Shown here piece after piece: positions 4,770 through 64,000 of a stretch of 64,000 nt of DNA. The stretch's first letter is position 1. Every line of letters starts with the position of its first letter. The DNA is from Eledone cirrhosa (Eukaryota). The stretch is from the NCBI GenBank assembly GCA_964016885.1, contig OZ024748.1:34534001-34598000 (forward strand), in the 5' to 3' direction. The notes under the pieces are model-generated. The model was not told the DNA's origin. It saw only the letters and a program-made list of their open reading frames with translations, and ran no database searches. The translations under genes and the position numbers were made by a program.

Positions 4770-6462
4770 TACTTGGGGAGGGTCATATTGTTGTAATAAT
4801 ATTGCCAGAAATAATAACAGAACACACTCACTGTTTGGATGGTTTTCGCTTCTGTTTCTTTTATATCTCCACAGTTAATTCATTTGGTCATCAATGTTTA
4901 TCATTGACTGACCAACGGTCAAAAATACGGATATAATATAGATATAAACACATATATATAGTCTAATAAAGTTCTTTAGTTGCACATCTGCACATCTGCA
5001 ACATCATAACCAATATGATTTAAAATGTAGCACAATGGACAGCATCCAGTAGATACATAACTCCATACACCAGAGTATAACTGTAACTATCGACTACCCT
5101 TCCAAACACCCTAACAATAGACTACCTGTATTAGACACGGAACTCTGGATTAACACTATAGACGAGAGAGCCAAAATTCTCCACACACACTACGCTAAAC
5201 CCATTGCCTCCAAATACCTGATACTCAAAAACTCAGCAATGTCCAGTAGTGCTAAGTTTAATATTCTGATCGCAGACATGGTACGAGTGATGAAGAACGT
5301 GTCCCGCATGTGCGACCCAACAGAAATGGAAAGACACATCCAACACTTCATCAACCGCATGCAGTTTTCTGGCTAAAACCAAAGAGACAGAATCAGAGTT
5401 TACAAAGGAGCCACGGAGAAATATAAGCCTCATAGAACTGGACATGAAAGAAATTTGCCCATTATACAGGAGCAAATCATGGAATAGCTAAGATAGGACT
5501 AAACATAAGATAGGGAAAGCCACCTCATGGGACGACAACCAGAGATACCAGAGCATCATGTTCGTGGACGCTACCCCTGGAGGGATATTAGCTAACCAGT
5601 GTAGAAAGGCCCTGAGAAAGACCCAATTAAAGATTAAAGTGGTAGAAAAGACAGGAACTACCATAAAACTCCTGCTCAGCAAAACTTTTAAGAAAACCCA
5701 CTGTGCTAATAGGAAATGTGTTATATGTAAAGTAAACCCCCAGATAAACTGTAAAACTAGAAACGTAGTCTATAGCATAAGATGTACAGAGGGTACTTGC
5801 AGAAGCATGACAGCAACATACATAGGCGAGACAGCTCGAAGCATAGGAGAAATGATAGACCAACACTGGGGGGAACTAAAAGGAAGAAAAAACGGTTCAG
5901 TACTATACGAACACGCCAGACAACAACATGTCGGTGACGTAGACAACATAGAAATTAAAATAATATCTAAACATAGTACAATAATAACAAACACATATAA
6001 ACACACACTAGTAAACTAAGATAGAATACAATAACCATAACACAGTCACCCAAACGCGAACACACACCAAACACTATACACACACACAAACGCATGCGTT
6101 GAGAAGACATAAATAAATAAACAGATAAAATAAAAATGGCGTAGACATACAATACAATAGGAGAAACATAATAGTACCACTGATCAATTTGCAGATGTGC
6201 AACGAAAGACTATATATGTGTTTATATCTATATTATATCCGTATTTTTGACCGTTGGTCAATCAATGATAAACATTAAGGACCAAATGAATTAACTGTGG
6301 AGATACAAAAGATACAGAAGCGAAAACCAACCAAACAGTGAGTGTGTTCTGTTATTATTTCTGGCAATATTATTACAACAAAATGACCCTCCCCAAGTAT
6401 AACAATATTTGTTTCGACACACGATTTCATATCAAAAACCTCGCAAAACAAATTCATCGCCA
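4770..6462 (+). mobile_element. PLE family A, 5'-truncated copy with inverted terminal repeat at the 5' end
   Basis: RT thumb (YPSKHPNNRLPVLD) then GIY-YIG ORF 5558-6019 (VVYSIRC...YIGET); 4770-5000 is an inverted copy of about 6190-6400; microsatellite flanks. Confidence 0.9.
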
Positions 6463-6938: not shown

Positions 6939-8876
6939 CGGGATTATTTTCTTTGTTTTGTGCCTCTCCTTTGTTCTGTCCTACGCCATCTTGTTTTTAT
7001 GTGTGTTGTGTGCTTAGTTTGCGCATGTGTTACATCCGGGTGTCTGTGTGTGTTTTTATTTGTTTATCTACATGTTACTGGTTGGTTGTTTGTTCTATGT
7101 GTGTGTGTGTTTTCATTTTGTCCTTAATTGTAAGTTGTGATGTTGCTATTCCATTCATGTTTTCTATTTAATTTTGGTTGGAATTCATTTATGTTTATTG
7201 CCTCTGTGATTTGTCTAAACATTGCGTCTTTTCTGTGTGTAGATTTTATTTTTATTTCTATGTTCTCTAATTTCCCCTTGTGTTCTATTTAAGCATGTTG
7301 GTGGAGTACTGATGATTCTTTTCTATCTTGAAGCTCTCGCCAGTGTTAATTTAATCGTTCTCCTATACTACGAGCTGTCTCACCTATGTACACTATATTC
7401 TTATCTTTACATTGTCCTTCAGTACATCTTATGCTATATACTATGTTTCCTGTTTTACAGTTAATATGGGGGCTAAGTTTACAGATTATGCATTTCTTAT
7501 CTATACAGGGAGGTCTTTGAAAAGGGTATGTATTATTAATAAGTGTTTTTATGGAGGTGCCTGGTCTTTCTACTATCTTAATATTTAGTTTAAGTTTATC
7601 TAGGGCCCTTCTAAATTTGTAAGCTAGTTCATCTCTAGGCGTTGTATTGATGAACATTATACTCTGGTATTTATTGCTATCATACCATGATTTATTCTAT
7701 TAACCTTATTCCTAGTTCTTTCTATTCTATTCCAAAATTTGCTCCTATACAAGGGGCAGGTCCCATTTGTGTCATTATTTACCATTTTTTCCCATTTCGT
7801 TCCGGCTCCTCTATATACTCTGATTTTATCTCTCTGATTGTAACCAGAGAACTGCATACGGTGGATGAAGAAGTGTTGTATGTGTCTCTCTAGTTCTTTG
7901 GGGCTGCACATGCGGGACACGTTTCTCATCACCCGTACTAAATCCGCAATCAGTATGTTGATTTTGATGTGATCCGAAACAGCTGAGTTTCGGTGGATCA
8001 GATATTTGGAAGTCATGGGTTTGGCATAATGGGAATGGAGGATTTGTTTATTGTTATTAATGGTTTCTAACCAGAGCTCTGTGTCTAGTACAGGTAATCG
8101 ATGGTTGGGGTGTTTGCTTGGGTAGTCTATAGTAACTCTAATACCCTGGTGGATGGAGGTAGCTATTTGCTGGATGCTTTCCATGGTGTTTTTCTCTAAT
8201 TCCTGACTGTTCTCTAGTGGGGGTGTTTTTACTACGATATTTATATCATCAACGTAGCGAGAGTACATTATCAGGGTTAAGAGGTTGCTGTCTTCTAATT
8301 GTTCTTTAAGTTTATTGTCCCACCATACCATGAATACGTCAGCTATGTCGCCTGCAATGCTAACACCAATGGCTGCTCCCTCCTCTTGGGCATATGTGTT
8401 TCCATTAAATTTGAACATATGTTCCTTAACGGTTAATTTTATACTGGCTCCCACCGCATGTGCAATCATTTTCTTTAGTTCATCATGGTTTTCGGAGGTC
8501 CGTATGGCTCTGGTCCACCCGTTCCATCTTCCTGTGTGGATTTTCTTTGGCCATTGAGGTAATGGTAGGTGGTCTGCCTCTTGCTGGTCTTGTGGGGCAG
8601 AGGTTGCTAAGGTCATACGTATCTAGATAATCATTACTATAAGTAAGTTTAAGTAGGAGTCCAAGCTCACTGGTATCAATCCCACTGAATTCAACATTGC
8701 TCTCACTGATCATCAATCAACCAGTAACATGTAAATAAACAAATAAATAAACAAATAAAAGCACACACAGACACCCGGATGTAACACATGCGCAAACTAA
8801 GCACACAACACACAGAAAAACAAGATGGCGTAGGACAGAACAAAGGAGAAGCACAAAACAAAGAAAAGAATCCCCG

Positions 8877-24289: not shown

Positions 24290-25163
24290 CAAATAACGAA
24301 ACGAAATTAAATTTCGTTTCGTTTGTAACTCACTTTTGTATGACTGACGCTTAAACAATTAAGTTAAAAATGTACATCTACATATGCATACTGAAATACT
24401 AGTGTGTATATGAATACACACACATATACATATGTAGGTGTACCAAGTCTTTCACTGGTCGCTTTACAGTGAGCGGCCAGCTATTCTGTATGTAAACACA
24501 CAGACAAACCGGTTTTTAGAGTCATACTGGTTTTTCGGGGGAACACCTTCCCCCTATTTTCCAGAAAGCCAGACAAGGAATATTGAACTAGTTTCGTTGT
24601 TGTTACAACTCATCAGCAATATTTACCTATCTACCGGCCTTTCTGGAGAATTGTAAAAGCACATATCGTTATATGCTTTTTCTATGAAAATTAGTAGTGG
24701 GCAGACTAATTTGCATAGAGTGTGAGTACGCACTCTATGCAAATTAGTCTGCCCACTACTAATTTTCATAGAAAAAGCATATAACGATATGTGCTTTTAC
24801 AATTCTCCAGAAAGGCCGGTAGATAGGTAAATATTGCTGATGAGTTGTAACAACAACGAAACTAGTTCAATATTCCTTGTCTGGCTTTCTGGAGAATAGG
24901 GGGAAGGTGTTCCCCCGAAAAACCAGTATGACTCTAAAAACCGGTTTGTCTGTGTGTTTACATACAGAATAGCTGGCCGCTCACTGTAAAGCGACCAGTG
25001 AAAGACTTGGTACACCTACATATGTATATGTGTGTGTATTCATATACACACTAGTATTTCAGTATGCATATGTAGATGTACATTTTTAACTTAATTGTTT
25101 AAGCGTCAGTCATACAAAAGTGAGTTACAAACGAAACGAAATTTAATTTCGTTTCGTTATTTG

Positions 25164-32149: not shown

Positions 32150-33398
32150 AGTTGGCGATGAATTAGCTTTGCGAGGTTTTTTATATGAAATCGTGTGTCG
32201 AAACAAATATTGTTATACTTGGGAAGGGTCATATTTGTGTAATATTGCCAGAATTAATAACAGGAGCAAATATACACGAGCAAATCATGGAATAGCTTAG
32301 ATAGGGCTAGACATAAGATAGGGAAAGCCACCTCATGGTACGACAACCAGAGATACCAGAGTGTCATGTTTGTGGACGCTACCCCTGGAGGGAAATTAGC
32401 TAACCAGTGTAGAAAGGCCCTGAAAGAGACCCACTTAGAAATTAAGGTGGTAGAAAAGCCAGGAACCACCATAAAATCCCTGATCAGCAAAACCTACCCT
32501 TTTAAGAAAACCCATTGTACCAATAGGAAATGTATCATATGTAAGGTAAACCCCCGGATAAACTGTAAAACTAGAAACGTAGTCTATAGCATAAGATGTA
32601 CAGAGGGTACTTGCAGAAACATGACAACAACATACATAGGTGAGACAGCTCGTAGCATAGGTGAAAGGATAGACCAACACTGGGGGGAACTAAAAGGACG
32701 AAAAAACGGGTCAGTACTATACGAACATGCTAGACAACAACATGACGGTAACATAGACAACATAGAAATTAGAATAATATCTAAACATAGAAATGACCCA
32801 CCAGATAGGCAAATCAGAGAGGCCAGTGAAATAGAAATTAGAAGACCAAGACTAAACAGAAAGAATGAATGGAATAACAACAACACCCAAACAAACAACA
32901 CTGACCTAAGAGAAGTATAAATAAGTAAATAAAATAAAATAAATAAATAAATACATACACAAGCACAATAACAACAAGCACATAAACACACACTAGTCAC
33001 CCACCACACAGCAAACAAAACACTATACACACACGCAAACGCATGCGCAAAGAAGACAAAATAAAATGAACAAACAAGCAAATAAATAAATAAATATATA
33101 GACAGACTGAATAAAAATGGCGTAGACATACAATACAACAGGAGGAAAAGATAGCACCACTGACGATGTTGCAGATGTGCAACGAAAGATTTATGATAAA
33201 CTATATATATGTGTTTGTGTCTATATTGCATCTGTATTATTTTTGACCGTCGGTCAGTCAATGGCAACATTGAGGACCGAGTAAGTTAGATTACCGATAT
33301 AAAAGACACAGAAGCGAGAAGCGAAAACCAACCAAACAGTGAGTGTGTTCTGTTATTAATTCTGGCAATATTACACAAATATGACCCTCCCCAAGTAT

Positions 33399-36054: not shown

Positions 36055-37775
36055 TGCTGAGCCGCTAGAGCCACTGCTGCGGAAGTTGGAGTTGTTGCAG
36101 GGCATCCCGTTGGAACCGGGATTGCGGAAAGCGGTGTCGGCCTACGCTGACGACGTAACAGTAATGGTGTCGACGGCCTCGGAAATCGGGGCGATCGGCA
36201 CCTTACTGGAGGAGTACGAAAGGTTTACAGGGGCTAAGCTGAACCGGGACAAGTCGATCGGTCTGCAACTTTGATTGATGCTCTCCGATGGCGTCGTCGG
36301 GCGTTGGACGGAGGGCCCGGTGAAGTTGCTCGGGGTCTGGTTCGGACCAGACCTCCAGATGGAGAAGAACCGGAACGAGGTAACGAACAGGGTGTTTGCA
36401 CTGACCCAGAAGTGGGCAAACTATCCCTGAAAGGTCGGGCGGAGGTGGCGAACACTTATATAGCGTCCGTCATCTACTACCGCCTGACCGTTGTGCCTTG
36501 CCCAAGGGAAACGCTCGCCAAAATGGAACGCTCACTCTTCCAATTCCTTTGGAAGAAGCGGGCTCCTATGGTGGGGAGATCCATCTGCTGTCAACACCCT
36601 TCGAAAGGATGGCTGGGGATGCCGTGGCTAATGATACCTAAACACGCATTAAGGCTACGGCACCTCCAGGTGTTCCTCATCGGTCAACCGGTGTGGGCCC
36701 CGTTTGTGAGGCGAGCCTTTCGCAGACTCGTTTTACTCACCGAGCTGCAATCCTGGGTCAAGCAAAGACCGAGAAAACTGGGCGCCTGGCACACCGAGTG
36801 TGCCCAGGCGCTCACGGCTCTCTGGTAGGCGGACCCGGCTGTCAGTGGAGAATCCACCTCGTCATTCTATAGAGGGCTGGTGGTTAGCAGGTGCGACGAC
36901 GCCCTCGGAGAAGCCCTAGGCATGGAGGAAGACGAACTGGACAACCTGTTCGGTAGGACATTCAGCCCGGGACCCATGGATAACTTCCGGACGTCCCTGG
37001 CCTGGCAGTGCTACCGAGGGGCTCTGCCCGTTCGAGAGAGGCTCTACAGACACGGGCGCCCGGGTAGGGACCCCTCGAAAAAGATCTGTCCCAGATGCGT
37101 GTGCGACGAGGAAACCGTTGCACACGCTTTGGTACACTGCTTGGGCATTGCCGATCTGTGGGGCTATGTCGAACAACTGCTGTCAATGGTGGGACCGATC
37201 CGGTTGACCACCGAGTCTATTGTAACGATCAAGTCGCCTCCCCTCTTCAAAAACGAAGGAGAGGCGGTGTTTCTGTGCGTAATAGCCATGGCGAAAGAGG
37301 TTGTATGGTGGACACGTCTGAAAGGACTGAGGTCAGACGCCTTTCTCTCTGGCCAACAACTGGTCCGTTTCTTCCGATATCATTTCGGAAGAAGGATCAG
37401 GATGGAGAGAGAGGTGCTGCACCCCAGCCGTTTTTATGAAAGATGGGTGAAAGTGGCGAGAATGGCCCGTGTGAATGGGCCTTCACTCTACATCAGACTA
37501 TAGGTGAGGAAGATGAAAGACCAAGGGAGCATCCCCTCTCTGTGCTCCTGAGGAGAAGAGTTGCACACTTTTTTCGGGGGGGGGCGACCCCCCAAGGCGC
37601 CTCCCCGTTATTGAGGATTTTGTTACAAAATTTATTTTGTTATATTTTATTTTATTTTTATACTTTTATATCTTGTTATTGCCTCCTCCATATTGAGGAC
37701 GCTTTGCATGTAAACTCCCCCCTTTGTACTTGTCCCACTTTTGATGCCCTGGTGGCAAATAAAAAGAAAGTTATC
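36055..37775 (+). pseudogene. L1/Tx1-type ORF2 3' portion with 3' UTR, disrupted
   Basis: AYADD motif and CPRC...H...C; ORFs at 36023, 36271 and 36880 are collinear with 56357-59794; aataaa at about 37758. Confidence 0.93.
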
Positions 37776-45498: not shown

Positions 45499-45743
45499 TA
45501 AAATAACAGTCTGTTTTCTGTATCAGGAGTTTTAGGTATGTTTTCCTGCTTGGTACGGGTATGTTCTTTGTAGAAATATTCAGATGTTGTTTCTGCATGA
45601 TGAATATAAGTCAGTAGAGTGCTCAACCGAGGGAGCCAAATAGTAATAATAATAAATTTGAAGACTAAAATCCAAAGAGGGCTCGATAAGGATAAATATA
45701 TATCAAATATATAAGAACCGTAGAGCAAATATTTATTAAAATA

Positions 45744-45819
45744 ACAGATTAAAGTTTAAGCAAAGAATCGCTGCTTTCACCCTTAACGGGATCTTCTGAA
45801 ACTAACAAAGTCAATCTGC
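45744..45819 (-). ncRNA. Variant-core type I HHR motif (family B)
   Basis: Reverse complement of 47976-48051. Confidence 0.65.
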
Positions 45820-47975
45820 AAACGCAGAAGTGGATATTTCAAAAAACGTTGGAACCGGGGGAAGACAGGAAGACGATACTTTGGTTCGTGGAAACGTTCC
45901 CTGGCAAAGAACGGGAAAAAACGAATATAATACGTCATTAATAGGAGCGGTGAAAAACAATTACGCACAAAGACAGAACCACGTTTATGGTATAAAAGAG
46001 GTCGTAGACTAATGTTCTCTTAGGTAGTTCATAGAGACGTTCTCTGGCAATGAACGAAAAGAACGAAGATTATACGTCATATGTGGAGCGTGGAGAACAA
46101 TAGCACGCAAACAAAAAAGTAAATAGTATAGCAGAAGTCGTAGACTAAAATTCTAACTAGGAGACCGAATGAATCTCCGCTTCAGAGTTAAGAACAAAGT
46201 AAATAAATACAATACAGAAGTAATAGAAATAAATAAATACATACACGCAAACAAATACGTACATATACAAGCATACGCAAAACACTTACCATATGTATAC
46301 AAAACCACGCACATATAAATATGTGTGTGTGTATGCGTGTATACAAATAAATAAATAATTATATAAACGTATATAAATAAATAAATAAATAAATAAATAC
46401 GTATATAACAAGCGCACACACATACCTACATGTAAATACACGAATGTTCGGAGACGTAAGTCAACCAAAACATGAAGTACACCCAACATACGTACGAACC
46501 TGCATACTCACACAGACGCAAAACTCCCGTATACACATAGCCAAACCATATGTACCAGAATATATAAAAAAATTATACGCCATAACATAAACAATCAAAT
46601 ATACGTACGAGAAGGTATACGTACCTTCACAAAACATACGGGTAATATATACTTACCTATGCAAATAAGTAATCGTATAAACATAACATATACTTAGCTA
46701 CCACATCAAGACGTAAAATATCCTCGTATAGATCGTACTATCCGTTAGGGTATAACGTGGGACTGTAATACAGGAAAGTTTTGTGCAATTTATGTTTACA
46801 AGCCGAAATTGCCTCAAATTTTTGTTTAAGATGTGGTCTGTGGCGTAGAGTATTTCCAGGGCCTCAGCGGCGCAGAGATCACATGTTCTTTTATTTCCGT
46901 TATACGATCTAGCCCTAGCTAGGATCTCCCAGTGTAACTTATATTGGGTGTGGTTGTCTTTTAGACTCCAGATATAAGCAGAAAGTGACGTCATATTCCT
47001 TCTTAGAGGGTAACGAAAAGAATTGGTATGCATGTAAAGACGCTGCTTGAATCTATTGGCGGTTAACCCTATGTAGGCCCTACGGGACGTGGGTGTTACA
47101 ACCTCACATTTGTAGACAATGTTACTAGAGAGGCATTTCCCGGATAGGGGGCAATCAACCCGATTCCTACAATTACAGTTAGTACTAACTACAGGGTTGC
47201 ACGTGTTCCTACGGCTAGGTAGTTTAGCTAAATTTGAAGCTGTGATGTTATGTGCAAGGTTAGGAGTCGTAGAATAAGAAATTTTAATAGTATTTCTATT
47301 AAAAATTTTACTATATTTATGTGTAGGGGGAAAATGCTTCGTAATAAGGGAAAGAAGAACTTCGTTAATGGTGTGGCCACCTCCATATTATATGGTGGGT
47401 TATACCAACAAATGCGACGGGATCTATTTCTTCTAGGTCTATTTTCGTACACGCATACACACACACACATATTTATATGTGCGTGGTTTTGTATACCTAT
47501 GGTAAGTGTTTTGCGTATGCTTGTGTATGTACGTATTTGTTTGCGTGTATGTATTTATTTATTTCTATTACTTCTCTATTGTATTTATTTACTTTGTTCT
47601 TAACTCTGAAGCGGAGAATCATTCGGTTTCCTAGTTAGAATTTTAGTCTACGACTTCAGCTATACCATTTACGTGGTTTTGTCTTTGCGTGCTATTGTTC
47701 TCCACGCTCCACATATGACGTATTATCTTCGTTTTTTTCGTTCATTGCCAGAGAACGTTTCTATGAACCACCTAAGAGAACATTAGTCTACGACCTCTTT
47801 TATACAATAAACGTGGTTTTGTCTTTGCGCGTAATTGTTTTTCACCGCTCCTATTAATGACGTATTATATTCGTTTTTTCCCGTACTTTGCCAGCGAACG
47901 TTTCCACGAACCAAAGTATCGTCTTCCTGTCTTCCTCCGGTTGCAACGTTTTTTTAAATATCCACTTCTGCGTTT

Positions 47976-48051
47976 ACAGATTGACTTTGTTAGTTTCAGA
48001 AGATCCCGTTAAGGGTGAAAGCAGCGATTCTTTGCTTAAACTTTAATCTGT
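47976..48051 (+). ncRNA. Variant-core type I HHR motif (family B, 5' pLTR)
   Basis: acagattga-ctttgtt-agttt CAGAAGA t ccc-gttaa-ggg t GAAA gca-gcgattctt-tgc TT aaact ttaatctgt. Confidence 0.7.
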
Positions 48052-48196
48052 TATTTTAATAAATATTTGCTCTACGGTTCTTATATATTTGATATATATT
48101 TATCCTTATCGAGCCCTCTTTGGATTTTAGTCTTCAAATTTATTATTATTACTATTTGGCTCCCTCGGTTGAGCACTCTACTGACTTATATTCATC

Positions 48197-50322
48197 ATGC
48201 AGAAACAACATCTGAATATTTCTACAAAGAACATACCCGTACCAAGCAGGAAAACATACCTAAAACTCCTGATACAGAAAACAGACGCGTTCATTAAAAG
48301 GTTGCGTTGGCGTGCATTTTATTTCGATAATCCGCGAAAAGCAGACAACAAGCAGGATGAATTTGGATTTAAAACCTATAATAACCCCCGTGTAACCCAG
48401 CATTGCTACCCTCCGAAAATGATGTCTTGGAACTCATTCTGAGTATCAAATTTTGGAATAGGAGCAATTCCTTCCAGCAACACCTGAAGAATAGAATTCG
48501 TTCTATTAAGGATTCTAATGCCGTGCACGTCCATTCCGACAAAACTGGCAACCTATATCAAGTGGAGCGCAGTACTTACCATCAACTACTACATAATGCT
48601 GGAACTAAGGATTACCGTAAGACTAATCGGTGCGTCATCAATGAAATCAACGATGCTGGGTTTAAAATCACATCTGATCTCAACATCCTGGACCGGACCG
48701 AACCTCTGGACCCTATTTCTCCCCACTTTACCCTGAAGGATCACAAATCCTATTTTCCGAACAACCCCTCTATTCGGCTTATTAACCCTACGAAGTCCGA
48801 TTTAGGTAGACTTAGTAAAACGATTCTTGATAGAATTATACCTGAAATTAGAAGTTTGGCCGCTCTTGCACTGTGGAACAATTCTTTCGCGGTGATTGAT
48901 TGGTTCAACGGCATATGTAACAAGGAACATTACCGTTTTATCCAATTCGACATCAACAATTACTATTCCTCCATCACTTTACCACTTCGCCTTAGAGCTA
49001 TCAATTTCGCTAAAACACTCACAGTGGTTAAGGATTTCGAAGTTGATGTCATCCTCAATGCCCAAAAGTCGGTGATTAATTTCGACGACTCTATTTGGAT
49101 TAAAAAATCCAATAGTACCCCATTCGACGTGAGTATGGGCGCCAGTGATTCTGCGGAGGTTACTGATCTTATCGGCCTTTTCCTTCTTTTCTCTATCAAG
49201 GACGAATTCCCCAACGCGGGCGGTGGTTTGTACCGTGACGATGGTCTTTTGACCATGACTAAGTGCGGACCTCGGGCTTGCGACAGGTTCAGAAAAGAAC
49301 TCACAGCCTTCTTTAAAGGCTTCAACCTCTCTATACAGGTTGAGACCAATCTCTCGGTCGGTAATTACCTCGACTTTACCCTCAATTTATTGAATGGGTT
49401 GTATTACCCGTATAGAAAGCCGAATGATACGCTTAATTACATAAGTAAGCATTCTAACCATCCTGCCAGCATAACCAAGAACCTGGTAAGAAACGTTTCG
49501 TTGAGGCTTTCCCGTCTTTCCACTAACGAGCGTATTTTCAACGACCATTCCACTTATTACAATGAAGCTCTTGCTCGAAGTGGATTTGTCGATAAGGTAG
49601 CATATACAGAGTACGAAAATAGACCTAGAAGAAATAGATCCCGTCGCATTTGTTGGTATAACCCACCAAATAATATGGATGTGGCCACACCATTAGCGAA
49701 GTTCTTTCTTTCCCTTATTACGAAGTATTTTCCCCCTACACATAAATATAGTAACATTTTTAATAGAAATACTATTAAAATTTCTTACTCTACGACTCCT
49801 AACCTTGCACATAACATCGCAGCTTCAAATTTAGCTAAACTACCTAGCCGTAGGAACACGTGCAACCCTGTAGTTAGTACTAACTGTAATTGTAGGAATC
49901 GGGTTGATTGCCCCCTATCCGGGAAATGCCTCTCTAGTAACATTGTCTACAAATGTAAGGTTGTAACACCCACGTCCCGTAGGGCCTACATAGGGTTAAC
50001 CGCCAATAGATTCAAGCAGCGTCTTTACATGCATACCAATTCTTTTCGTTACCCTCTAAGAAGGAATATGACGTCACTTTCAGCTTATATCTGGAGTCTA
50101 AAAGACAACCACACCCAATATAAGTTACACTGGGAGATCCTAGCTAGGGCTAGATCGTATAACGGAAATAAAAGAACATGTGATCTCTGCGCCGCTGAGG
50201 CCCTGGAAATACTCTACTCCACAAACCACATAAACAAAAAATTTGAGGCAATTTCGGCTTGTAAACATAAATTGCACAACACTTTCCTGTATTACAGTCC
50301 CACGTTATACCCTAACGGATAG
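48197..50322 (+). CDS. PLE reverse transcriptase plus C-terminal GIY-YIG endonuclease, one frameshift at about 48385-48390
   Basis: Motifs SDKTGN, TLKDHK, IRLINP, FDI..YY.SI, MGA.DS, YRDDG, YLD, CNC....CPL.GKC, IVYKC...YIG, CDLC; ORFs 48197-48442 and 48403-50322 join if one base is restored in a C-run. Confidence 0.92.
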
Positions 50323-51249
50323 TACGATCTATACGTGGATATTTTACGTCTTGATGTGGGAGCTAAGTATATGTTTTGTTTATACGATTACTTATTTGCA
50401 TAGGTAAGTATATATTACCCGTATGTTTTGTGAAGGTACGTATACCTTCTCGTACGTATATTTGATTGTTTATGTTATGGCGTATAATTGTTTATATATT
50501 CTGGTACATATGGTTTGGCTATGTGTATACGGGAGTTTTGCGTCTGTGTGAGTATGCAGGTTCGTACGTATGTAGGGTGTGTGTATATGTGTACTTCATG
50601 TTTTGGTTGACTTACGTCTCCGAACATTCGTGTATTTACATGTAGGTATGTGTGTGCGCTTGTTATATACGTATTTATTTATTTATTTATTTATATACGT
50701 TTATATAATTATTTATTTATTTGTATACACGCATACACACACATATTTATATGTGCGTGGTTTTGTATACCTATGGTAAGTGTTTTGCGTATGCTTGTAT
50801 ATGTACGTATTTGTTTGCGTGTATGTATTTATTTATTTCTATTACTTCTGTATTGTATTTATTTACTTTGTTCTTAACTCTGAAGCGGAGATTCATTCGG
50901 TCTCCTAGTTAGAATTTTAGTCTACGACTTCTGCTATACCATTTACGTGCTTTTTTGTTTGCGTGCTTTTGTTCTCCACGCTCCACATATGACGTATAAT
51001 CTTCGTTTTTTTCGTTCATTGCCAGAGAACGTCTCTATGAACCACCTAAGAGAACATTAGTCTACGACCTCTTTTATACCATAAACGTGGTTTTGTCTTT
51101 GCGCGTAACTGTTTTTCACCGCTCCTATTAATGACGTATTATATTCGTTTTTTCCCGTTCTTTGCCAGGGAACGTTTCCACGAACCAAAGTATCGTCTTC
51201 CTGTCTTCCTCCGGTTGCAACGTTTTTCGAAATATCCACTTCTACGTTT

Positions 51250-51325
51250 ACAGATTGACTTTGTTAGTTTCAGAAGATCCCGTTAAGGGTGAAAGCAGCG
51301 ATTCTTTGCTTAAACTTTAATTTGT
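51250..51325 (+). ncRNA. Variant-core type I HHR motif (family B, 3' pLTR)
   Basis: Same fold; core CAGAAGA at 51271. Confidence 0.7.
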
Positions 51326-51423
51326 TATTTTAATAAATATTTGCTCTACGGTTCTTATATATTTGATATATATTTATCCCTATCGAGCCCTCTTTGGATT
51401 TTAGTTTTTAAATTTATTATTAT

Positions 51424-51486
<63 letters not shown>

Positions 51487-51722
51487 ATTGAAAAGGAGGC
51501 CAAATATGTTGAATCTCCTTCATTTGTTTATTTCTGCAAACACTATGTACATTTCAGTGACCTGCTTGCGTAAGAACCCGGTGACATCTTCAGGTGTAGA
51601 TGTACAGCAACAGAATGGTAGTAGACTTTAAGGAAACAAGCACAGAAAAAAAGAGAGGAAAAATGTGTTTATGTTTTTGACGCAGAGAGGAACGAGCCAG
51701 CATGTTGCTACACTGCTCTCTA

Positions 51723-51790
<68 letters not shown>

Positions 51791-51887
51791 ATAATAATAA
51801 AATTGTAGACTAAAATCCAAAGAGGGCTCGATAAGGATAAATATATATCAAATATATAAGAACCGTAGAGCAAATATTTATTAAATA

Positions 51888-51963
51888 ACAGATTAAAGTT
51901 TAAGCAAAGAATCGCTGCTTTCACCCTTAACGGGATCTTCTGAAACTAACAAAGTCAATCTGT
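51888..51963 (-). ncRNA. Variant-core type I HHR motif (family B, inverted pLTR)
   Basis: Reverse complement of 47976-48051. Confidence 0.65.
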
Positions 51964-52642
51964 AAACGCAGAACTGGGTATTTCAAAAAACGTTGCAACC
52001 GGAGGAAGACAGGAAGACGATACTTTGGTTCGTGGAAACGTTCGCTGGCAAAGAACGGGAAAAAACGAATAATACGTAATTAATAGGAGCGGTGAAAAAC
52101 AGTTACGCGCAAAGACAGAACCACGTTTGTGGTATAAAAGAGGTCGTAGACTAATGCTCTCTTAGGTGGTGCATAGAGACGTTCTCTGGCAATGAACGAA
52201 AAGAACGAAGATTATACGTCATATGTGGGGCGTGGAGAACAATAGCACCCAAAGACAAAACCACGTAAATGGTATAGCAGAAGTCGTAGACTAAAATTCT
52301 AACAAGGAGACCAAATGAATCTCCGCTACGGAGTTAAGAACAAAGTAAATAAATACAATACAGAAGTAATAGAAATAAATAAATACGTACACGCAAACAA
52401 ATACGTACATACACAAGCATACGCAAAACCTTACCATAGGTATACAAAACCACGCACATATAAATATGTGTGTGTGTGTATGCTAGTGTACAAATAAATA
52501 AATAATTATATAAACGTTTCCACGAACCAAATATCGTCTTCCTGTCTTCCTCCTGTTGCAACGTTTTTTGAAATACCCCGTTTACAGATTGACTTTGTTA
52601 GTTTCAGAAGATCCCGTTAAGGGTGAAAGCAGCGATTCTTTG

Positions 52643-52699
<57 letters not shown>

Positions 52700-52849
52700 A
52701 TAATAATAAAATTGAAGACTAAAATCCAAAGAGGGCTCGATAAGGAAAATATATATCAAGGTGATATATATTTTAAGTTAAAGTGAAAGCAGCGTTAAGT
52801 TAAGGGTGATAGCAGCGATTCTTTGCTTAAACTTTAATCTGTTATTTGA

Positions 52850-52906
<57 letters not shown>

Positions 52907-56356: not shown

Positions 56357-59300
56357 CTACAGGCTGATATAGAGAGAAGGCCCATTCACTCGGGCCATTC
56401 TCGCCACTTTCACCCACCTTTCATAAAACTTGCTGGGGTACAGCACCTCTCTCTCCATCCTGATTCTTCTTCCAAAGTGGTATTTGAAAAAAAGAATCAG
56501 TTGTTGGCCGGAGAGAAAGGTGTCTGACCTCACCCCTTTCAACCTTGTCCACCATACAACCTCTTTCGCCATAGCTATCACACAAAGGAAAACCGCCTCT
56601 CCTTCGTTTTTGAAGGAGGGTGGCGGTTTGATCATGACAATGGACTCGGTGGTCAACTGGATTGGTCCCACCCGCGACAATAGTCGTTCTACATAGCCCC
56701 ACAGGTCAGTGACGCCCGGGCAGTGTATGAATGCGTGCGCGACGGTTTCTTCGTCTCGCACGCACCTCGGACAGATCTTTTTTGCAGGGTCCCTGCCCGG
56801 GCGCCCATGTCTGTAGAGCTTGTCTCGAACTGGTAGAGCTCCTCGGTAGCACTGCCAGGCCAGGGACTTTTGGAAGTTGTCCATTGGTCCCGGGCGGAAG
56901 GTCCTACCGAACAGACTGGCCAGTTCATCTTCCTCTACGCCGAGAGTTTCACCGAGCGCGTCGTCGCACTTGCTGCGGACCAACCCTCTATAGAATGACG
57001 AAGTGGAGTCTCCACTGATCTCCGGGTCCGCCTGCCAGAGGGCTGTGAGCGCCTGAGCACATTCGATGTGCCAGTCGCCCATTTTCCTCGGTCTCTGCTT
57101 GACCCAGGACTGCAGCTCGGTCAGCGAGACGAGTCGTGGGAAGGCTCGCCTCACGAACGGGGCCCACACCGGTTGTCCGGTGAGGAATACGGAGAGATGC
57201 CGCAGCCTGAGCGCGTGTTTGCGCATCGTCAACCACGGCATCCCCAGCCCTCCGTTAGAAGGGTGTTGGCAGCAGATGGATCTTCTCACCAAAGGAGCCC
57301 GCCTCTTCCAAAGGAATCGGAAGAGCGCGCGCTCCATTTTGGCGAGCGTTTTGGCTGGACAAGGCACGACGGTCAAGCGGTAGTAGATGGCGGACGCTAT
57401 ATAAGTGTTCGCCACCTCCGCTCGACCTTTCAAGGATAGTTTGCACTCGGCCCACTTCTGGGTGAGTGCAAACACCTTGGCCGTCACTTCGTTCCGGTTC
57501 TTCTCCACCTGGAGGTCCGGACCAAACCAGACCCCGAGCAGATTTACCGGTCCTTCCGTCCAGCATCCGACGACGCCATCGGAAGGCATCGGTCTGCCTC
57601 TCCACGATCCGAGTTGCAAACCGATGGACTTGTCCCGGTTCAGCTTCGCTCCTGTGAGACTTTCGTATTCCTTCAGTAAGGTGCCGACTTCCTCGATTTG
57701 CGAGGCGCTCGACACCATTACTGTCACGTCGTCGGCGTAGGCCGACGCCGCTTTCCGCAGTCCCGGTTCCAGAGGGATGCCCTGCAATAGCTCCAGCTTC
57801 CGCAGTAGTGGCTCGAGAGTCAGTACGTACAGAAGGGAGGAGAGAGGGCATCCCTGTCGAATGGATCGCGTAATATGGAACGGCTCCGAGAGGTAACCGT
57901 TCACCTTGACCCTTGAGCAGATGTTGCTGTTGTGCATTGCAGCAATCCAGCCCCTGAACACGGGTCCGAAGCCTGCCGCCTCGAGCACCGCATCCAGGTA
58001 ACGATGGTCAACCCTATCGAAAGCCTTAGACTGATCCAAGTTGATCAGGGCCCCACCGAAGCCGGGTTTACACCCTACCCTCTCTATGATGTATCGCATG
58101 AGGTGGAGGTTGTCGTGTATGGACCTGGTCGGGATTGCGCATGTCTGCGCTTCTCCCACCAGGTTCTCGACGACAAGCGCCAGCCTCTTTGCCAACACCT
58201 TGGCCAAAATCTGTAACTCTGTGTTTAGCAGAGTTATGGGCCGGAAGTTGCCTATGTCATCCCCCTTATTCTCGTCCTTCCTGATTAGTGTGACCACGCC
58301 CCCGGTTACAGAACTGAGAATTCTCCCGTTCTGTTGCCAGTTGCAGTAGACCGCTTCCAGGAGACCGGAGAATAAGTCCGGCATTGCTACGTATAATTCG
58401 TAGGGTAGACCGTCGAGACCTGGAGATTTGCGTTTGCCGCATTGGCTCAGCACGTCCCCTATCTCAGTGGCTGAAATCGGCTTTTCGCAGAACTTCGCCT
58501 CGCTGTCCGAGAGTCGCGGTAGGCCGTCGAGGTATGGACCGAAATCCATAGCCTCTCCCGGCGCGCCGCTCCCCCCGTACAGCCGAGCAAAGTGCCGCTG
58601 AAAAGCCGCACACATCTGCTTCGGCTCACGTATCACGCGTCCGTTTTGGTCCTTCAAAGACCGAATCGTGGACTTGTTGCCACTTTTTGCCTCCGTCACT
58701 CGGGCCCAGCAAACAGCTTTGGCTCCCTCGTTTCCCAGAGCACGTATTTTGCTTCTGACAACGCAGCCCTCGTGCTTTGCGTCGAAGAACTGGTCCAAGG
58801 CCGTTCTCGTTGCTAGCACGCTGGCTACGTTGCCACTTCTAATTGCCTCTTCTACTTTATCTACCAGTTCCTTCTCGGTTCTATTTCTATCTAACGCTAA
58901 TTCTTTACTAAAAGCTATCGAGTCTAATCTAACTGCCCTCTTGAGAGAGTACCACCATCTGTTGTTGACAATGGCCCCTGTCAAGTGCTGTTTAACTAAA
59001 GTGCTAATCCGTCTACTGTAGGCTTTGCTTGTCGGTAACGACAAGTTCAGCTTCCAGTAGCCGGGTCCTTGTCTATGGGTTCTATCAAGGTTGGCCATGC
59101 AGGTCACTAGTTTGTGATCTGAATAGGCAACCATGAACATTTGTGGACAGCTTAACATGTCCCTATCCTTATTTCTAACTAGAACCCTATCTAGGTACGA
59201 TCTAGATGATCCGCTACGATTACTCCACATCCACAGTGGCGCAGTCGGAAAATCTAGTCGATATCTATCGGCCAGGTCAAATCGGTCCATTAACTGTTTG

Positions 59301-59794
59301 AGGCTGTTACACCCCCCTTTATCGGGACATGCTCCCACATAGTCCCAACGTGCATCTAGGATTCCATTCCAGTCCCCCACTAAAAGCAAGGAGCGGGACG
59401 TTCCCAGAAAAGTCTCTAGACGTTTGAAGAAGTCTGGCCGCGGTGTGCCGGATGGGGCATATGCGGCCACCAGCCTGAACGCTCCACCTTCACAACCGTC
59501 AACGTCTAGGACCACCAGTCGACCCTCCGGGTCCAGATGTACCGTCTGTGTTACGAGGTCCAGGTGTTTCCGCAGCAAAACGGCAACTCCGCCCCCACCC
59601 CCCGGTTGACAGAGAGATGCGTAGATCTCAAAGTCATCGAAGATGGGGGCCAGCTGTCGCTCGCCGTGGATCCTGGACTCGCAAATGGCTACCACATCCA
59701 AACTGTGCGACCTGAGGTCGTTTAAGAGTTTTCCCCGTTTCCAGGGCATCCCCAGGCCGCGTACGTTCACACATCCAACTCTTATATTGGCCAT
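56357..59794 (-). CDS. L1/Tx1-clade LINE ORF2: APE endonuclease, reverse transcriptase and C-terminal Cys/His domain, intact 1145 aa
   Basis: NVRGL, GDWN, SYLD, SDH (APE); KSPGLDG, FRPITLLN, LDQSKAFD, RQGCPLS, AYADD (RT); CPRC...H...C. Confidence 0.97.
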   Translation of the reverse strand: MANIRVGCVNVRGLGMPWKRGKLLNDLRSHSLDVVAICESRIHGERQLAPIFDDFEIYASLCQPGGGGGVAVLLRKHLDLVTQTVHLDPEGRLVVLDVDGCEGGAFRLVAAYAPSGTPRPDFFKRLETFLGTSRSLLLVGDWNGILDARWDYVGACPDKGGCNSLKQLMDRFDLADRYRLDFPTAPLWMWSNRSGSSRSYLDRVLVRNKDRDMLSCPQMFMVAYSDHKLVTCMANLDRTHRQGPGYWKLNLSLPTSKAYSRRISTLVKQHLTGAIVNNRWWYSLKRAVRLDSIAFSKELALDRNRTEKELVDKVEEAIRSGNVASVLATRTALDQFFDAKHEGCVVRSKIRALGNEGAKAVCWARVTEAKSGNKSTIRSLKDQNGRVIREPKQMCAAFQRHFARLYGGSGAPGEAMDFGPYLDGLPRLSDSEAKFCEKPISATEIGDVLSQCGKRKSPGLDGLPYELYVAMPDLFSGLLEAVYCNWQQNGRILSSVTGGVVTLIRKDENKGDDIGNFRPITLLNTELQILAKVLAKRLALVVENLVGEAQTCAIPTRSIHDNLHLMRYIIERVGCKPGFGGALINLDQSKAFDRVDHRYLDAVLEAAGFGPVFRGWIAAMHNSNICSRVKVNGYLSEPFHITRSIRQGCPLSSLLYVLTLEPLLRKLELLQGIPLEPGLRKAASAYADDVTVMVSSASQIEEVGTLLKEYESLTGAKLNRDKSIGLQLGSWRGRPMPSDGVVGCWTEGPVNLLGVWFGPDLQVEKNRNEVTAKVFALTQKWAECKLSLKGRAEVANTYIASAIYYRLTVVPCPAKTLAKMERALFRFLWKRRAPLVRRSICCQHPSNGGLGMPWLTMRKHALRLRHLSVFLTGQPVWAPFVRRAFPRLVSLTELQSWVKQRPRKMGDWHIECAQALTALWQADPEISGDSTSSFYRGLVRSKCDDALGETLGVEEDELASLFGRTFRPGPMDNFQKSLAWQCYRGALPVRDKLYRHGRPGRDPAKKICPRCVRDEETVAHAFIHCPGVTDLWGYVERLLSRVGPIQLTTESIVMIKPPPSFKNEGEAVFLCVIAMAKEVVWWTRLKGVRSDTFLSGQQLILFFKYHFGRRIRMEREVLYPSKFYERWVKVARMARVNGPSLYISL

Positions 59795-61304: not shown

Positions 61305-64000
61305 TGTTCGGAAGGCATCGGTTTGTCTCTCCACGATCCGAGTTGCAAACCGATGGACTTGTCCCGGTTCAGCTTCGCTCCTGTGAAACTTTCGTGTTCC
61401 GTCAGTAAGGTGTTGACACGTCGTCGGCGTAGGCCGACCCCGCTTTCCGCACTCCCGGTTCCAGAGGGATGCCCTGCAATAGCTCCAACTTCCGCAGTAG
61501 TGGCTCGAGAGTCAGTACGTACAGAAGGGAGGAGAGAGGGCATCCCTGTCGAATGGATCGCGTGATATGGAACGGCTCTGAGAGCTAGCCGTTCACCTTG
61601 ACCCTTGAGCAGATGTTGCTGTTGTGCATTGCAGCAATCCAGCCCCTGAACACGGGTCCAAAGCCTGCCGCCTCGAGCACCGCATCCAGGTAACGATGGT
61701 CAACCCTATCGAAAGCCTTAGACTGATCCAAGTTGATCAGGGCCCCACCGAAGCCGGGTTTACACCCTACCCCCTCTATGATGTGTCGCATGTGGTGGAG
61801 GTTGTCGTGTATGGACCTGGTTGAGATTGCGCATGTCTGCGCTTCTCCCACCAGGTTCTCGACGACAAGCGCCAGCCTCTTTGCCAACACCTTGGCCAAA
61901 ATCTGTAACTCTGTGTTTAGCAGAGTTATGGGCCGGAAGTTGCCTATATCATCCCCCTTATTCTCGTCCTTCCTGACTAGTGTGACTACGCCCCCGGTCA
62001 CAGAACTGGGAATTCTCCCGTTCTGTTGCCAGTTGCAGTAGACCGCTTCCAGGAGACCGGAGAATAAGTCCGGCATTGCTACGTAAAATTCGTAGGGTAG
62101 ACCGTCGTGACCTGGAGATTTGTGTTTGCCGCATTGGCTCAGCGTGTCCCCTATCTCAGCAGCTGAAATCGGCCTTTCGCAGAACTTTGTCTCGCTGTCA
62201 GAGAGTCGCGGTAGGCCGTTGAGTTATGGACCGAAATCCATAGCCCCTCCCAGCGCGTCGCCCTTCCTGAACAGTTGAGCAAAGTGCCGCTGAAAGGCCG
62301 CACACATCTACTTCGGCTCACGTATCACGCGTCCGTTTTGGTCCTTCAAAGACCGAATCGTGGACTTGTTGCCACTTTTTGCCTCCGTCACTCGGGCCCA
62401 GCTAACAGCTTTGGCTCCCTCGTTTCCCAGAGCACGTATTTTGCTTCTGACAACGCAGCCCTCGTGCTTTGCGTCGAAGAACTGGTCCAAGGCCGTTCTC
62501 GTTGCTAGCACGCTGGCTACGTTACCACTTCTAATTGCCTCTTCTACTTTATCTACCAGTTGCTTCTCGGTTCTATTTCTATCTAATGCTAATCCTTTAC
62601 TAAAAACTAACGAGTCTAATCTAACTGCCCTCTTGAGAGAGTACCACCCTCTGTTGTTGACAATGGCCCATGTCAAGTGCTATTTAACTAAAGTGCTAAT
62701 CCGTCTACTGTAGGCTTTGCTTGTCGGTAACGACAAGTTGAGCTTCCAGTAGCCGGGTCCTTGTCTATGGGTTCTATCAAGGTTGGCCATGCAGGTCACT
62801 AGTTTGTGATCTGAATAGGCAACCATGAACATTTGTGGACAGCTTAACATGTCCCTATCCTTATTTCTAACTAGAACCCTATCTAGGTACGATCTAGATG
62901 TTCCGCTACGATTAGTCCACGTCCACAGTGGCACAGCCGGAAAATCTAGTCGATATCTATCGGCCTGGTCACATCAGTCCATTAACTGTTTGAGGCTGTT
63001 ACACCCCTCTTTATCGGGACATGCTCCGACATAGTCCCAACGTGCATCTAGGATTCCATTCCAGTCCCCCATTAAAAGCAAGGAGAGGGACGTTCCCAGA
63101 AAAGTCTCTAGACGTTTGAAGAAGTCTGGCCGCGGTGTCTCGGATGGGTCATATGCAGCCACCAGCCTGAAGGCTCCACCTTCACTACTGTCAACCTCTA
63201 GGACCACCAGTTGACCCTCCGGATGCAGATGTACCGTCTGTGTTACGAGGTCCAGGTGTTTTCGCAGCAAAACGGTAACCCCGTCCACACCCCCCGGCTG
63301 TGAATCCTGGACTCGCAAATGACTGCTACATCCATACTGTGCGACTTGAGGTCGTTTAAGAGTTTGACCTGTTTCCAGGGCATCCCCAGAACTTCAACCC
63401 TAGTCCCATTGAATACATCTCTGGGGGATTTTCCTACTGAAAGTATTTTGTCTTCATCAAAATTGATGAAGTCGCACAGTTTACCTTTGGTGTGACACTC
63501 GCGATTCTAATTTTTTGTGTCCCTTTTCCCATGTATGTAGGGAAAAAGGTATACATGTTGGATACAATTGGCGACACAGAGTAATTTTGGGCCGTCAATT
63601 GATCCTTCATGAGACCGAAATACTCCCAAAGAGTTTGCTTCTTTGAATGAATGAAATATCATTCATTGAATTTTTGAAAACCAAAAACCAGTTAAATTTC
63701 TTTCTGTGACAATTGGACTGGTTTTCGGGTAGAATTGGAAACTGTCCTAAAAAATATCGTTTTGAGAGCAGTTTCCTTGCGAATTTCTACCGGAGAATTG
63801 ATGCTGAAAGAACCATTCTTTTCGAAAGTGACATATCTCTTAGCGTCCTTTAAAAGTTGTTCGGCATTTGTAATGTCGAGATATGTTAGTTCCTCCTTTT
63901 TCTGAAGTGTCTGTGCAAAGGAGATTTTCGGTTTCTTTGTGGAATTAACCGTGTTGGTGGTGTTGTCATTATTGTTGCTATTGTTGTTGTTATTCTTGTT
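61305..64000 (-). pseudogene. Further L1/Tx1 copy upstream in tandem: ORF1 5' part fused to disrupted ORF2 5' half
   Basis: 61305-63389 closely matches 57580-59755 with deletions and stops; 63390-63870 matches ORF1 60810-61300. Confidence 0.92.

Follow-up and report, generated by a model that had tools for sequence, protein, structure and literature searches.

A probable slow hammerhead variant with A in place of U4 in a Penelope-like element family of Eledone cirrhosa

A 64,000-nt stretch of the Eledone cirrhosa genome (contig OZ024748.1; this whole stretch is referred to as the window) raises the question of whether an RNA motif that deviates from the hammerhead consensus at a single core position can still be a self-cleaving ribozyme. 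All five copies of the motif in the window read CAGAAGA in the core (45792-45798 and 51936-51942 on the minus strand; 47997-48003, 51271-51277 and 52605-52611 on the plus strand), with an A at position 4, where canonical hammerheads hold a U. An earlier note on this DNA had reported this core in the five copies, which is borne out by their sequences, and had proposed it to be a functional, family-wide variant.

The host element is assigned, by its predicted motifs, to the Hydra clade of Penelope-like retrotransposons. A single ORF with a reverse transcriptase (RT) and a C-terminal endonuclease, together with RWK-like, DKT and CxCX5C motifs, are marks of this clade (PMC8557442). The parts of the element family found in this region are the following:

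45509..47450, minus strand: inverted 5'-truncated copy, with a hammerhead copy at 45744-45819
47440..48155, plus strand: 5' pseudo-LTR, 96% identical to the 3' pseudo-LTR
48197..50322, plus strand: ORF for an RT plus a GIY-YIG-type region at the C terminus (RWR, DKT, CxCX5C), frameshifted near 48390 in this copy
50718..51430, plus strand: 3' pseudo-LTR that ends in (TA)n and holds the second hammerhead copy (51250-51325; cut predicted at 51311/51312)
51784..52517, minus strand: inverted pseudo-LTR copy, with a hammerhead copy at 51888-51963
52513..52645, plus strand: atypical fragment that halts at the predicted cut and is followed by (AT)n

The frameshift of the ORF corrects the earlier note; open frames of 713 aa are present elsewhere in the 3.0-Gb genome. 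Among the 121 proteins collected, DKT/S was found in 119 and RW[KR] in 112, and a Pfam search gave no match. Pseudo-LTRs, inverted 5'-truncated copies and (TA)n insertion are also traits of the Hydra clade that this family exhibits; the one trait it lacks is the canonical hammerhead core, in which A4 replaces U4. Beyond the fragment at 52513..52645 lie an inverted tail (52693-52770) and then a partial copy (52799-52857).

The motif in the 5' pseudo-LTR can be drawn as a type I hammerhead, with the following parts, all on the plus strand:

47976..48051: type I hammerhead-like motif, from constrained folding and sequence
47976-84/48043-51, 47985-91 and 47992-96/48038-42: predicted distal stem I, bulge and proximal stem I
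47997-48003, 48005-15, 48017-20, to 48036, and 48037: core, stem II, GAAA, stem III and U17, as predicted by the fold
47998: core position 4, where A replaces the U of canonical hammerheads; kept in 14,687 of 14,817 genomic matches and the majority letter in all five subfamilies described below
48037..48038: predicted cleavage site after CUU, placed by the fold; genomic ends are not in excess here

In this constrained fold, stem I comprises 9 bp, a 7-nt bulge and 5 bp, stem II has 3 bp with a U.U closure, stem III has 4-5 bp, and the CUU triplet ends at 48037, so that the bipartite stem I, U.U-closed stem II, GAAA and CUU of the original description hold. C3-G8, G5, A6, A9, G12, A13, A14, A15.1-U16.1, H17 and a free N7 are all present, U4 being the only core letter missing. 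The two sense copies are spaced 3274 nt from cut to cut, as had been claimed, and the ATG at 48197 lies 159 nt past the predicted cut (about 160 nt in the earlier description). According to the constrained folding, three helices around the core with an open stem I are possible in both young and old subfamilies, at 1.8-6.0 kcal/mol above the minimum-energy fold; for the motif of the element described above, the gap is 2.1-6.0 kcal/mol. A competing helix that hides GAAA gains one pair from A4, with a probability of 0.40 versus 0.02 in a natural T4 copy, and the pairing of A14 with U17 is frequent in the predicted ensemble (0.28-0.86). No hammerhead in Rfam matched the motif at E<=1 in a search of the window. 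A CUGANGA descriptor misses this motif by definition, as had been anticipated, but A4 is not the sole cause of its non-detection, since the natural T4 copy is likewise missed by Rfam, even at E<=10.

If the five copies descended from one mutated local copy, most genomic copies would be expected to carry a T at position 4. Exact pattern matching with a 33-mer in which this position was left free returned 14,817 genomic matches, with A4 in 14,687 (99.1%) and another letter in 130. As nearly all of them hold A4, the alternative of a single mutated local copy fails, and the claim of a family-wide core variant stands. The non-A letters (G 39, T 37 and C 24 in the first 100, counted by hand) are the expected outcome of decay after insertion. 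In the sequencing runs X1, X4, X6, X7 and X22, no alternative letter at 47998 appeared among the differences listed; these runs hold near-identical copies and therefore add no time depth. Near-identical copies of window positions 47900-48200 occur in runs X4, X6 and X7, which are labelled as other organisms, and it is not distinguishable whether they come from close relatives, transfer or contamination.

A canonical U4 sister family was considered on the basis of 931 matches to CTGANGA with the same stem II. This candidate was rejected, because 28 of the 30 matches inspected are fold-back junctions at position 4, the other two being point changes. Around 900 fold-back insertions are mirrored exactly at this position, in a 3-bp micro-palindrome (47995-48001 in the window); in the inspected loci (L061-L090), one arm usually ends near +29 from the cut and the other near +118. 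This arrangement suggests that two cDNAs, started from both priming sites, have been joined (twin priming).

The age of A4 was approached through older subfamilies, which were found via loop III, N7 and the ORF. Five subfamilies of 77, 35, 20, 9 and 17 copies were compared, with the exclusion of 92 fold-backs, 116 truncated young copies and 25 unassigned old ones. Third codon positions differ between old and young ORFs at 107 of 325 sites (33%), versus 33/328 at first and 25/329 at second positions. When the majority letter of each column is compared among the five subfamilies, none of the 54 stem and core positions differs, A4 included, a result that is inflated in that the search anchors fix about 20 of the 54. 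The loops and N7 differ at 10 of 22 positions, a figure likewise raised because loop letters defined the subfamilies, and the flanks differ at 32/96 positions upstream and 26/98 downstream, where the signal is noisy. The distal stem I lies outside all anchors and has 0/18 changes, though it is partly upstream of the inferred transcription start. In addition, A4 is kept in three old copies that were fetched by their ORF rather than by the motif (L226, L232 and L235). The sole core position that changes is N7, from A to U (15 of 16 copies of one subfamily), and this is the one that varies in working hammerheads (PMC2837043). A check for covariation on the genome copies yielded conservation alone, with the stems invariant among the five subfamilies and no compensatory change seen. 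To judge from these comparisons, A4 is old and not a recent accident, and the motif is under purifying selection; having stayed unchanged while its surroundings drifted, it is likely to be a still-working, though probably slow, self-cleaving RNA.

Two further observations concern the subfamilies. A TATA-like hexamer at 47959-47964, about 30 nt before the inferred transcription start, is present in the old and young-B subfamilies and altered in young-A. Several young-B copies (L007, L008, L038, L039, L044, L051 and L060) have a common sequence downstream of +29, which suggests a composite non-autonomous element amplified on its own.

Among relatives, U4 is as highly conserved as had been stated. 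Hammerhead motifs were found in 50 of 77 related metagenome loci with a descriptor that left position 4 free (five shuffles gave no matches), and all 46 distinct hammerheads hold U4 and a GUH triplet; the 26 Hydra rows of File S2 in PMC8557442 all read CTGANGA with GUH. The remaining 27 loci had no hammerhead by this descriptor, and relaxing the scan to admit non-U4 cores added a single match, inside an ORF. When the nearest outside protein (P0003, 55%) was used as the query, only the same family came back, so no close U4 outgroup was found, and no relative was found in viral contigs. Among the relatives examined, A4 with CUU is confined to the Eledone cirrhosa element family. A related element (L484:2400) has a U3-A8 core variant.

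The closest known systems are the type I hammerheads of the Hydra clade (Craig et al. 2021, PMC8557442), such as Hydra-1_cRog, which are alike in their position in pseudo-LTRs and their type I topology, and also in the U.U closure of stem II, U17 (10 of 26 rows) and the (TA)n target; the bipartite stem I is common to Hydra-1_cRog and the Eledone motif. In contrast, these relatives hold U4, GUH and a tiny palindromic stem-loop III, whereas the Eledone motif holds A4, CUU and a loop III of 7-9 nt. The unusual features are thus A4, C16.2 and the long loop III, the U.U closure and U17 being ordinary in the clade, and the motif is most aptly classed with the type I hammerheads of Penelope-like elements, as a variant lacking U4. 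Natural core variants (U3-A8, A6C, U15.1-A16.1, insertions and the viroid U4C; PMC3088659, PMC4209133) likewise combine an off-consensus core with a low expected activity. However, U4A is absent among the variants described in these sources, while the Eledone family has it fixed, in about 15,000 copies and throughout old subfamilies. No report of a natural U4A hammerhead was found in the literature searched; relevant papers and supplements beyond this search may contain a case or a rate.

The ends of genomic copies provide a record of where element RNA was reverse transcribed. Copies have two common 3' termini:

48060..48066, plus strand: first common 3' terminus, about +29 from the cut and the inferred start of reverse transcription; 127 of 278 copies at +29 and 12 at +28
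48151..48156, plus strand: second common 3' terminus, about +118, the pseudo-LTR end; 72 of 278 copies at +118 and 9 at +119

None of the 278 sampled copies passes into flanking DNA at the predicted cut, and none of 37 long copies that reach it stops there. Likewise, 5' breaks are not enriched at the cut (844, versus 1,267 at a single control site, TTAA in loop II, both counts including small deletions). In run X22, the depth of reads stays level at the cut and falls over 47988-47998, partly through the clipping of one subfamily. The stop of the 52584 copy at 52645, pointed out in the earlier note, is real; as evidence of cleavage it does not hold, since 0/278 copies end there. This copy is thus an exception, which was probably interrupted when something later inserted at a TA. 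The Poseidon element of Anolis (PMC11167929) resembles the Eledone element in being primed internally at two sites downstream of the ribozyme, with two 3' termini and no ends at the cut; it differs in its canonical core and in that its cleavage has been shown to require protein, help from which is assumed in Eledone.

At the 5' side, a single position stands out:

47992, plus strand: inferred capped transcription start, where proximal stem I opens and 1,141 copies begin

These 1,141 copies begin at A47992 behind two non-native letters. The letter preceding A47992 is G in 53, A in 33 and C in 14 of the first 100, counted by hand (G versus C, p 1.8e-6), and in 30 inspected loci G makes up 15 of the 21 preceding letters that are not explained by an inverted arm. 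In two loci (L284 and L292), both arms of a fold-back end at A47992, with an added C and G. An extra G at the 5' end is a known trace of a reverse-transcribed cap, and the pattern points to a capped start within stem I. As cDNAs starting at A47992 crossed the cut site, their templates were uncut, and many templates were evidently uncut at the 5' copy.

Long copies follow a different pattern. The start of the ORF is retained in 70 copies (the best ORF matches, and thus a non-random sample); of these, 37 reach the cut and 33 reach 47998, only one of the 33 stopping in 47989-47998. A sample anchored at 47992 behaves otherwise, as 7 of its 30 copies break off only a few bases from that position (Fisher p 0.004). 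Many of the ORF-start copies extend hundreds of bases upstream of the cap site, and 12 of the 70 stop at 48161-48172, just under one full lap. Among old copies, 36 of 52 stop in 47977-47998. The long copies are most simply read as made from a template that had no 5' end at 47992, in other words a seamlessly joined circle, as proposed for cleavage of the same site in both pseudo-LTRs (PMC4209133); strand transfer, or transcripts reading through from upstream, could account for them as well.

Taken together, the motif is probably a slow type I hammerhead variant (A4, CUU) that is under purifying selection and makes circles, a prediction from sequence in which we infer both the catalysis and the 3274-nt circle. 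It would have been kept by selection because it cuts and rejoins the element RNA into a circle. Transcription would begin with a cap at A47992, leaving the 5' copy without the distal 9 bp of stem I, so that this copy would often stay uncut. Reverse transcription, with its priming at about +29 or +118, would then cross the cut and run to the cap, producing the many copies of 70-160 nt and the fold-backs. Where both copies are cut (48037 and 51311), a 3274-nt monomer would be released and seamlessly ligated, and reverse transcription round this circle would yield the ORF-bearing copies, whose 5' pseudo-LTR reaches far upstream of the cap site. The element's protein may assist cleavage, an assumption made by analogy with the Anolis element. 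Penelope hammerheads are slow and may need protein (PMC4209133, PMC11167929), and a natural U4C viroid variant retained enough activity in vivo to support infection (PMC3088659). Several points count against activity: saturation mutagenesis of a type III hammerhead left low activity for all single changes in the CUGA turn (PMC9901934), no genomic end lies at the cut, read depth is level there, the fold is above the minimum and competes with the helix that hides GAAA and with A14-U17 pairing, and compensatory changes are missing. Ribozyme mutants of the Anolis element, moreover, remain able to insert in vitro (PMC11167929).

All of the points against ribozyme activity favor the main rival, in which catalysis disappeared with U4A and the sequence was retained in another role, as a protein-bound structure near the priming sites, a core promoter around A47992 or a splice acceptor, with long copies arising by strand transfer or read-through. 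The inferred start overlaps the 5' half of the motif, templates were often uncut, and in the D. virilis element the initiator promoter is internal and the 3' end of an intron lies in helix I (PMC2377424, PMC4209133). The bulge and core (47981-47999) resemble a 3' splice site, with a pyrimidine run and two AG, and A4 creates TTTCAG behind this run. The terminal redundancy available for strand transfer is 164 nt. Nevertheless, this rival does not predict that both strands of three stems and GAAA are kept while only N7 and the loops change, and strand transfer would need to work in 32 of the 33 second passes yet often fail in first passes. As for the splice acceptor, no spliced retrocopy joined at 47994 or 48000 occurs among 414 anchors, a point weakened by the fact that Penelope-type elements are known to retain introns. 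On this balance, we regard loss of catalysis as rather unlikely. A neutral relic, amplified from a master copy without a ribozyme, is in line with the success of Naiad elements without canonical hammerheads (PMC8557442), and copy number by itself is no proof of function, but it is highly improbable and already largely refuted by 0/54 stem and core changes against 33% third-position divergence in the ORF.

Returning to the slow, circle-making hammerhead, its most specific form can be put forward tentatively: a natural, working A4 hammerhead whose 15.2-16.2 pair is flipped, silenced in the 5' copy by the cap site in stem I and required for the circular template of full-length copies. If this were true, the truncation record of the genome would be fossil evidence of Penelope hammerheads making replication circles. 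As U4 is taken as fixed in hammerhead descriptors, a selected U4A in about 15,000 copies would mean that whole families have been missed, and this family would offer a natural test of what compensates for the loss of U4. The model of a cap site and a second lap, with uncut capped RNA giving rise to short copies and circles to long ones, can be checked in genomes with a large young family.

Elsewhere in the window, a hammerhead of another family occurs as an inverted pair (24563-24634, minus strand; 24819-24890, plus strand) with the canonical CTGATGA and GUU, and matches HH9 in Rfam with an E value of 3e-6, under the gathering score. Other Penelope ORF fragments resembling RT/GIY-YIG are present at 5558-6019, 7657-8616 and 32366-32920. 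An open frame of 1145 aa at 56357-59794 (minus strand) resembles a LINE ORF2 with endonuclease and RT, and more LINE ORF2-like fragments lie at 36922-37503 and 61585-62076.
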